Source: Oscillospiraceae bacterium
GTDB lineage: Bacteria; Bacillota; Clostridia; Oscillospirales; UBA929
Assembly: GCA_031271525.1 (NCBI GenBank)
Contig: JAISVO010000068.1
Coordinates: forward strand, 1-35,783
DNA length: 35,783 nt
Direction of reading: 5' to 3'
In this document: positions 22,931-23,175 of the stretch, in pieces
Layout of the letters: each line of letters begins with the position of its first letter
Position numbering within the stretch: position 1 is the stretch's first letter
The notes under the pieces: generated by a model
Databases searched by the model: none
Seen by the model: the letters and a program-made list of their open reading frames with translations, nothing else
What the model was told of the DNA's origin: nothing
Program-made: the position numbers and the translations under genes

Positions 22931-22970
22931 AAAAGAACCGCCGGCGTCCCTTTGGGGACTGCCGACGGCT
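22931..22970 (-). terminator. Attenuator terminator upstream of ilvB
   Basis: Minus strand AGCCGTCGGC-A-GTCCC-CAAA-GGGAC-GCCGGCGGTT followed by CTTTT, ending just before the ilvB ribosome binding site. Confidence 0.8.
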
Positions 22971-23002
22971 TTCCTGTCTTTGCTACTGAAACCGATGGAC
23001 GT

Positions 23003-23113
23003 TCAGCGTTGAGACCGTAAGAGCAGCCTGCCGGCATTTTGGGGAATGCCAATAAGGACGAGACCCAGAAGGATCGTCCAAAGCAGGCTAATAATGCTGC
23101 GGTTACGGTTCAT
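23003..23113 (-). CDS. ilv-leu operon leader peptide, 36 aa: MNRNRSIISLLWTILLGLVLIGIPQNAGRLLLRSQR
   Basis: Translated by hand (too short for the ORF track). 15 of 36 codons are Leu (9), Ile (5) or Val (1). Lies between a strong promoter and a terminator hairpin. Confidence 0.8.
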   Translation of the reverse strand: MNRNRSIISLLWTILLGLVLIGIPQNAGRLLLRSQR

Positions 23114-23146
23114 TGAAAAAATACCCCGGTTTCTAAAATTTTTACC

Positions 23147-23175
23147 AGTATAGCACCGCGCGCACCCCTTGTCAA
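23147..23175 (-). promoter_or_regulatory. Sigma-A promoter of the ilv-leu operon
   Basis: Minus strand TTGACA-17 bp-TATACT with a TG extension. Confidence 0.85.

Follow-up and report, generated by a model that had tools for sequence, protein, structure and literature searches.

Locus and leader region

The window analysed in this study is a stretch of 35,783 nucleotides (nt), positions 1 to 35,783 of contig JAISVO010000068.1 in the assembly GCA_031271525.1, from an uncultured Oscillospiraceae bacterium of the order Oscillospirales. The genome (G000) originates from a termite-gut metagenome, consists of 192 contigs, is 89.9% complete and has a G+C content of 60%. The minus strand of the window carries a nine-gene biosynthetic operon, from 22911 to 11846, which is headed by ilvB and encodes enzymes for isoleucine, leucine and valine (ILV). 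The subject of this report is the leader region directly ahead of ilvB, in which a promoter, a small ILV-rich open reading frame (ORF) and a terminator follow one another, and which is very probably a ribosome-mediated (leader-peptide) transcription attenuator of the ilvB-...-leuB operon. The features of the locus are as follows, with the basis of each assignment in brackets; SD stands for Shine-Dalgarno motif and MFE for minimum free energy folding.

23147..23175, minus strand: sigma-70-type promoter, TTGACA, 17 nt, TGcTATACT with an extended -10 (11 of 12 consensus positions)
23124..23127, minus strand: weak SD-like GGGG, 10 nt ahead of the leader ATG (sequence reading)
23003..23113, minus strand: leader ORF of 36 codons plus TGA, MNRNRSIISLLWTILLGLVLIGIPQNAGRLLLRSQR (translation)
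23083..23089, minus strand: segment 1, AGCCUGC (codons S9-L11), which pairs with the 3' part of segment 2 (duplex and MFE)
23056..23079, minus strand: internal hairpin within the control codons, GGACGA...UCGUCC, codons W12-L20 (MFE and alignment)
23033..23050, minus strand: small hairpin GGCAUU/AAUGCC, linking codons G22-I23 with the beginning of segment 2 (MFE)
23025..23035, minus strand: segment 2, GCCGGCAGGCU (DNA GCCGGCAGGCT), which pairs with segment 1 or with the terminator 5' arm (duplex and alignment)
22936..22970, minus strand: intrinsic terminator hairpin composed of segment 3, an inner stem-loop and segment 4 (folding)
22931..22937, minus strand: interrupted U-tract UUCUUUU (sequence reading)
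21184..22924, minus strand: ilvB, acetolactate synthase large subunit, the first gene of the operon, including its AGGAGGG SD (TIGR00118, E = 5.9e-200)
11846..21187, minus strand: remainder of the operon, a methyltransferase-like ORF, ilvC, ilvD, leuA, cimA, leuC, leuD and leuB (NCBIfam and Pfam matches)

An earlier note on this DNA had described a TTGACA-17-TATACT promoter, a 36-codon ORF with 15 Leu/Ile/Val codons and four pairing segments, and all of these were recovered on the minus strand where it had placed them. The promoter, with its -35 TTGACA at 23175-23170 and its -10 TATACT at 23152-23147, has in addition the TG of an extended -10 at 23155-23154, and in a consensus scan it was the best of three matches in 12 kb and the only one at 11 of 12 positions. 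Transcription probably starts near 23140. The leader ORF lies downstream of this promoter, from the ATG at 23113 to the TGA at 23005-23003, and its 15 ILV codons (5 Ile, 9 Leu and 1 Val) make up 42% of the ORF, compared with 22% of the proteome. These codons are concentrated in codons 7-23, 12 of which are ILV. Moreover, ATT is used for four of the five leader Ile codons, as against 17.5% of the Ile codons in the long ORFs of the genome. No Pfam family matched the leader peptide.

In the terminator, segment 3 is AGCCGTCGGC at 22970-22961 and segment 4 is GCCGGCGGTT at 22945-22936, followed by TTCTTTT. The hairpin has a folding energy of -26.7 kcal/mol (scan range -26 to -27), and the bulge in its stem caused a consensus scanner to miss it. 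The terminator lies only 25 nt ahead of the ilvB ATG at 22911, which is served by the AGGAGGG at 22924-22918. Since this spacing leaves no room for a further promoter, transcription of the operon must read through the terminator. Furthermore, the palindrome G(C/U)CGGC occurs in each of segments 2, 3 and 4.

Conservation among homologous leaders

Homologous leaders were recovered by fetching the DNA upstream of ilvB in relatives. The resulting set comprised the window, G006/UBA929 (L032, L061 and the variant L141), EPI_MAG_00043 (L062) and Cu122P5bin9 (L063 and the partial L143). BLAST with the 301-nt leader against 61 relatives gave no significant homologue and missed even the known G006 copy, and the only new leader copies to come from a metagenome scan were L141 and the partial L143. 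A contig scan likewise gave only three homologues with a leader among 76 usable loci, mostly metagenome-assembled genomes (MAGs) labelled Ruminococcus or Eubacterium, at about 53% ilvB identity. In addition, a covariance model built from six sequences (R1) recovered nothing beyond its own members in the 30 genomes of the family, which indicates that the sequence family is narrow.

The window, L032/L141, L062 and L063/L143 have in common a promoter, an SD, an ILV-rich ORF, the motif GCCGG and a GC-rich terminator. The promoter columns TTGAC and TG.TA.A.T are invariant in the four homologous leaders. The ILV-rich ORFs of the homologues (MSINLISLLPTVVLVVTVLVLLTKTPAMSCQDP; VNYAQNNNLISLLAVIILVVIALILIPQNAGQRVSRIEGLSK; MGFILTNLISLLVAIILGVIVLIGLAQKPAAESGL) share the pattern LISLL...ILG.I.LIG, and at aligned positions I, L and V swap freely. 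The alignment upstream of ilvB that the earlier note had recommended thus revealed the ORF, the ILV run and the pairing between segments 2 and 3 (2:3) in three other lineages, with compensatory changes.

These changes were examined in alignment A2, which has 6 rows from 4 lineages and hence limited statistical power. Across the homologues, the outer stem of the terminator is 90% paired. The internal hairpin (A2 columns 79-86 with 96-103) is paired in 94.9% of cells, and in three of its eight pairs both partners have changed. In the 2:3 core, 97.5% of cells are paired, and one pair (124/202) is compensatory, being CG in two rows and UA in two rows; when the partners were slid by 1-3 columns, pairing fell from 96% to 21-73%. 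The 1:2 pairing is present in every sequence, and it could not be scored column by column because the registers differ. In the region of segment 1, ATYAGCCTSCTG is kept in all four lineages.

The GCCGG core of segment 2 is invariant in all six sequences, and its first base falls at codon position 1 in the window and L062 (N-A-G) and at codon position 3 in L032 and L063 (T-P-A and K-P-A). Conservation across two reading frames points to a constraint on the RNA and not on the peptide. This observation bears on the idea that the ORF encodes a real small hydrophobic (membrane) peptide followed by an ordinary terminator, with no regulatory role for ilvB. The peptide resembles a single transmembrane helix, its LISLL...LIG part is kept at the amino acid level, and the two other ILV-rich small ORFs of the genome are probably real or phage proteins. 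However, if the terminator 25 nt before ilvB acted unconditionally, the nine-gene operon would be silenced, as no promoter follows it, and the frame-independent GCCGG, the lack of a Pfam family and the occurrence of such ORFs specifically before ilvB in 13 families, with divergent sequences, all speak against this explanation, which is very unlikely.

The same genus also contains G007 (L033, G007:C20), with 71% ilvB identity, in which an identical GGTGCTATACT -10 region lies about 100 nt upstream of ilvB. Neither a leader ORF nor a terminator was found upstream of this ilvB, which looks like a natural attenuator-less variant.

Alternative folds of the leader

The earlier note had claimed a mutually exclusive four-segment layout, and this claim was borne out both by the computed 1:2, 2:3 and 3:4 duplexes and by a switch in masked folds. 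The duplex energies were -11.8 kcal/mol for 1:2, -15.9 kcal/mol for 2:3 and -17.4 kcal/mol for the outer stem of 3:4. The proposed pairings were found, and the scheme proved to be incomplete: two further hairpins, one of which covaries, lie between segments 1 and 2, and the palindromic GCCGGC also allows segment 2 to pair with segment 4 (-15.1 kcal/mol).

In the mask model, folding of nascent RNA was taken as far as the terminator loop, with a mask of 28 nt that had the ribosomal A-site at its centre. In the ribosome-free nascent RNA, 1:2 and the two nested hairpins formed, and only 3 of the 15 nt of the terminator 5' arm were paired upstream. With the A-site at codons 4-11, positions that cover I7, I8, L10 and L11, segment 2 paired with the 5' arm over 10-13 nt. 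With the ribosome at the stop codon, 1:2 formed and the 5' arm was free. L032, L062 and L063 showed the same switch as the window in this model. Dinucleotide shuffles of the leader body matched the native switch in 2 of 60 cases for the window and in none of 60 each for L032 and L062; in shuffled leaders, the arm was usually already paired when free of a ribosome (mean 9.7 of 15 nt). The significance of the switch was judged by this nascent-fold test, which replaced z-scores of duplex energies.

Free of a ribosome, the leader has an MFE structure in which sequence around and beyond its stop codon pairs with the SD-like GGGG and with codons 2-4 (23113-23140 with 22985-23020, minus strand). In this model structure, such pairing could prevent renewed translation of the leader after its completion.

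Background tests were performed on the genome and on shuffled sequences. Folding of the 216-nt leader gave -82.8 kcal/mol (z = -6.1), a stability that none of 200 shuffles reached. A genome-wide scan of G000 gave 2200 terminator-like hairpins, among which 188 loci had an SD-bearing small ORF before the hairpin and an ORF of at least 120 amino acids (aa) downstream. Within this background set, only three loci reached 8 ILV in 10 codons, the window leader being one of them, and five reached 7. Another of the three is an ILV-rich small ORF with a hairpin at G000:C126:3482-3593 on the plus strand (L221), which precedes a phage tail tape-measure gene; as an attenuator it was rejected, and it is probably a small prophage protein. 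A W-rich ORF on contig C139 was also rejected as a leader peptide, as it sits within a long gene.

These tests concern the possibility that a promoter-like site, an open frame and a hairpin came together here by chance and without function. GC-rich random leaders do often pair with a GC-rich arm, as the shuffled mean of 9.7 of 15 nt indicates, and the duplex z-scores are weak. Nevertheless, conservation in four lineages with compensatory changes, the fold z-score of -6.1, the rarity of such ORFs genome-wide and their association with ilvB across the order make a chance arrangement extremely improbable.

Proposed mechanism and points against it

The interpretation of the leader as a ribosome-mediated attenuator draws on the elements of its sequence and how they are conserved, on the alternative pairings and on the switch that constrained folds display; from these we infer transcription start, translation, stalling, termination and readthrough. 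Transcription would begin at the strong promoter, and a ribosome would start on the 36-codon leader. When charged tRNA-Ile and tRNA-Leu are ample, the ribosome would reach the UGA stop; segment 1 (AGCCUGC) and the two nested hairpins would then hold segment 2, and the free 5' arm of the terminator would pair with segment 4, so that RNA polymerase would terminate at UUCUUUU, 25 nt short of ilvB. Under scarcity of Ile or Leu, the ribosome would stall on the early control codons I7 I8 S9 L10 L11, and probably on codons up to about L16. The stalled ribosome would cover segment 1, segment 2 would pair with the 5' arm once this has been made, and the 2:3 helix would block the terminator and allow the operon to be transcribed. 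In the model, the effective control codons are mainly those for Ile and Leu, and the range of effective positions does not take in the one Val codon, V19. Control by Ile and Leu fits an operon that holds leuABCD and cimA besides ilvBCD.

Several observations weigh against this interpretation. The earlier note had proposed that stalling on the control codons masks segment 1 and lets the antiterminator form; the A-site at codons 4-11 did give the proposed 2:3 helix, but stalls at codons 12-23, which include 11 of the 15 ILV codons, gave no antiterminator in the mask model. For these A-site positions, the program re-formed the 1:2 pairing across the masked ribosome, which is physically doubtful. 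The full-length RNA at equilibrium kept the terminator under every mask. The terminator thus wins at equilibrium, as in classical attenuators, and the choice of the antiterminator must be co-transcriptional and kinetic. Among the leader loci across the order, a clean switch between the free and stalled states was seen at only 8 of 29 in the simple mask model. At many of the non-switching loci, the stop codon lies 12-18 nt from the terminator, which suggests a variant logic in which a ribosome at the stop would itself cover segment 2.

Furthermore, the energy of the bare 2:3 duplex in the window had z = -1.96, with 13 of 300 shuffles as good, and the corresponding values for L032 (z = -1.08) and L062 (z = -0.38) were not significant, that of L063 being z = -2.26. 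The z-scores of the 2:3 and 1:2 duplexes were mostly not significant, with p < 0.05 for 2:3 at 2 of 10 loci. The SD of the leader is weak (GGGG at a spacing of 10 nt), and those of the homologues are better (GGAG or GGGAG, 7-8 nt from the start). The U-tract of the terminator is interrupted, and the covariation comes from only four independent lineages. Finally, G007, the closest relative by ilvB after G006, is without the leader, which means that the element is dispensable.

Searches for other regulators

The earlier note had suggested an Rfam search of the region, and no T-box was found: Rfam at the gathering score gave no match in the whole window, T-box included. With permissive settings (22800-23300, E <= 10), no T-box or leader family appeared either, and the only matches, all of them on the opposite strand, were at chance level (PreQ1, E = 0.45, and two small nucleolar RNA families). 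None of the curated amino-acid leader families of Rfam, such as the Leu, Thr, Trp and His leaders and the leu/phe leader, matched. In the same search, 26 related ilvB loci gave T-boxes. The genome has a single strong T-box-like element, which is at G000:C83:2090-2333 on the plus strand (L225, 191-434), precedes trpE and scored 84.1 bits, with the cut-off at 93 bits. This element and the ilv leader together suggest that in this organism trp is controlled through a tRNA sensor and ilv through a leader peptide. A CodY gene was not found in the 89.9%-complete genome, and no CodY box was present in the window within 3 mismatches of the CodY motif.

Survey of ilvB loci in the order

In a first sample of relatives, a leader of this type was found at 8 of the 27 loci with enough upstream DNA. 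A broader sample of 151 genomes of the order yielded 92 ilvB-like matches in 83 genomes. Three of these (G088, G103 and G167) and ten with an identity of at most 46% were left out, and 79 loci in 77 genomes were surveyed. For a locus to be counted as having a leader, an SD-like motif and an ORF of 12-60 codons were required, with 7 or more ILV in 10 codons, together with a terminator no further than 160 nt from ilvB; 15 earlier loci were scored with a slightly different terminator routine. T-boxes were called by Rfam, as a T-box regular expression was insensitive and found only one of three Rfam T-boxes in the first sets. The results were as follows.

ILV leader and terminator before ilvB: 24 of 79 loci, in 13 of 21 families
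T-box at the Rfam gathering score before ilvB: 26 of 79 loci, in 11 of 21 families
Neither element before ilvB: 29 of 79 loci (families not counted)

Leader peptides are therefore about as common as T-boxes at the ilvB genes of the order (24 versus 26 of 79). None of the 79 loci had a leader and a T-box together. As none of the 26 T-box loci meets the leader definition, these loci serve as an internal control with no false calls. Both types occur in five families and even in one genus (g84). This alternation at the same position, even within one genus, would imply that sensors acting through the ribosome and through tRNA have been swapped repeatedly.

Most leaders elsewhere are richer in Ile and Val, whereas the window leader is Leu-rich. 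Many ILV leaders of other families (L044, L040, L265, L234, L050/L283, L258, L259 and L233) have the shared ending ...(D/N)-N-A-x(2-4)-(S/R)-C-A. The RNA of this ending is AAUGC...GUUGYGC, and its AAUGC is a possible partner for a G-I codon pair within the ILV run. The shared ending may reflect a conserved 1:2 design or common ancestry.

The survey and the searches also bear on whether the window has a conditional terminator governed by a sensor other than the ribosome, such as an unrecognised RNA-binding protein, a tRNA or a metabolite, with the ILV-rich ORF incidental or secondary. T-boxes do the same job at 26 of the 79 related loci, and the leader RNA of the window is itself highly structured (z = -6.1) with a covarying hairpin; its SD is weak and, in the mask model, most ILV codons are no trigger. 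Against these points stand the absence of a match to the T-box or any other Rfam family and of a detectable CodY gene, the free exchange of I, L and V among homologues with the residue class kept, and the enrichment of an ORF with SD and ILV at 24 of 79 ilvB loci, compared with 5 of 188 background loci, in sequences that are otherwise unrelated. A sensor of this kind is accordingly considered unlikely. As for the ribosome-mediated attenuator itself, there is about an even chance that the window leader belongs to a large, apparently undescribed class that guards about one third of the ilvB genes of the order and alternates with T-boxes.

Gene content of the operon and its surroundings

Between ilvB and ilvC, at the usual place of ilvN, the operon carries an ORF of 281 aa (20342-21187, minus strand) resembling S-adenosylmethionine-dependent methyltransferases (Methyltransf_11/25), whose start overlaps the ilvB stop. 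The small subunit gene ilvN is located elsewhere in the genome (G000:C18:2374-2829, 120 bits). The citramalate synthase gene cimA (14656-16215, minus strand; TIGR00977, E = 1e-196) adjoins leuA, and its presence in the operon points to a threonine-independent route to isoleucine. Directly upstream of the leader region lies a gene for a secreted M6-family metalloprotease of 1015 aa with internalin-like leucine-rich repeats (23217-26264, minus strand). This gene ends at 23217, with no evident terminator of its own ahead of the ilv promoter.

Comparison with known systems

Attenuation of branched-chain amino acid (BCAA) operons by leader peptides is classical in enterobacteria. According to one review, the enterobacterial leader of ilvGMEDA has 32 aa with 15 BCAA and that of ilvBN has 32 aa with 11 (PMC6123439). 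With 36 aa and 15 BCAA, the window leader is similar in size and load to these multi-BCAA leaders (ilvL and ivbL, respectively). It also resembles them in having a terminator directly before the first gene and mutually exclusive 1:2, 2:3 and 3:4 pairings. Unlike the enterobacterial leaders, it has no similarity to an Rfam leader family and belongs to a Firmicute of the class Clostridia. Moreover, it differs from them in a covarying hairpin within the control codons, a palindrome in segments 2-4 and a single Val codon, and its operon combines ilv, leu and cimA genes.

Among Firmicutes, attenuation by Rli60 of Listeria monocytogenes has been shown experimentally (PMC5864092), and experiments support it for an ilvD leader of Staphylococcus aureus (PMC5794164). 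Both share with the window a Firmicute host, an ilv-leu operon and a BCAA-rich leader with a terminator and an antiterminator. These attenuators act together with CodY, have peptides of 13 aa and 26 aa and precede ilvD (PMC5864092, PMC5794164). In the window, by contrast, the first gene is ilvB, neither a CodY gene nor a CodY box was found, and the host belongs to Clostridia and not to Bacilli; the sequences were compared through Rfam only.

The ilvBNC leader of Corynebacterium glutamicum, with its three-hairpin structure and ilvB-II motif, is similar in being a Gram-positive ilvB leader with a BCAA-rich upstream ORF and a terminator, as reported (PMC11857589, PMC10272879). Its host is an actinobacterium, and the window leader is unrelated to it by sequence, having no Rfam match. 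The T-box (RF00230), as in the ilv-leu operon of Bacillus subtilis, occupies the same place and produces the same terminator/antiterminator output before ilvB, but it senses uncharged tRNA directly and needs no ORF, unlike the window leader.

The review cited above calls the mechanism common in Gram-positive bacteria and names Lactococcus, Corynebacterium and Streptococcus (PMC6123439). For hisS of Firmicutes, 'regular' leader peptides have been reported by Naville and Gautheret (PMC2965389). Text searches of the literature gave no report of leader-peptide attenuators of ilvB in Clostridia, Ruminococcaceae or Oscillospiraceae. The window leader thus seems to be of a known kind by mechanism, to belong to no curated family by sequence and to be new for its class as far as was searched.

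Significance

The earlier note had held that the ilv-leu operons of Firmicutes typically use T-boxes, with Lactococcus lactis as a known exception. T-boxes are indeed frequent in the order studied here, but Lactococcus is not the sole exception, in view of the experimentally supported attenuators of S. aureus and Listeria, and 24 leaders stand beside 26 T-boxes at the 79 loci. The T-box as a working rule for Firmicute ilv-leu operons is thus corrected, in that leader peptides are equally frequent before ilvB in this order of gut Clostridia. Because Rfam does not contain these leaders, annotation pipelines will either overlook them or label them as hypothetical small membrane proteins.

The patchy spread of these elements, with leader, T-box or neither within families and a relative that has the promoter without the leader, provides a natural system for the study of sensor replacement. 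For the organism itself, the attenuator predicts that the supply of Ile and Leu in the termite gut would set the expression of the nine-gene operon, including the citramalate route to isoleucine.

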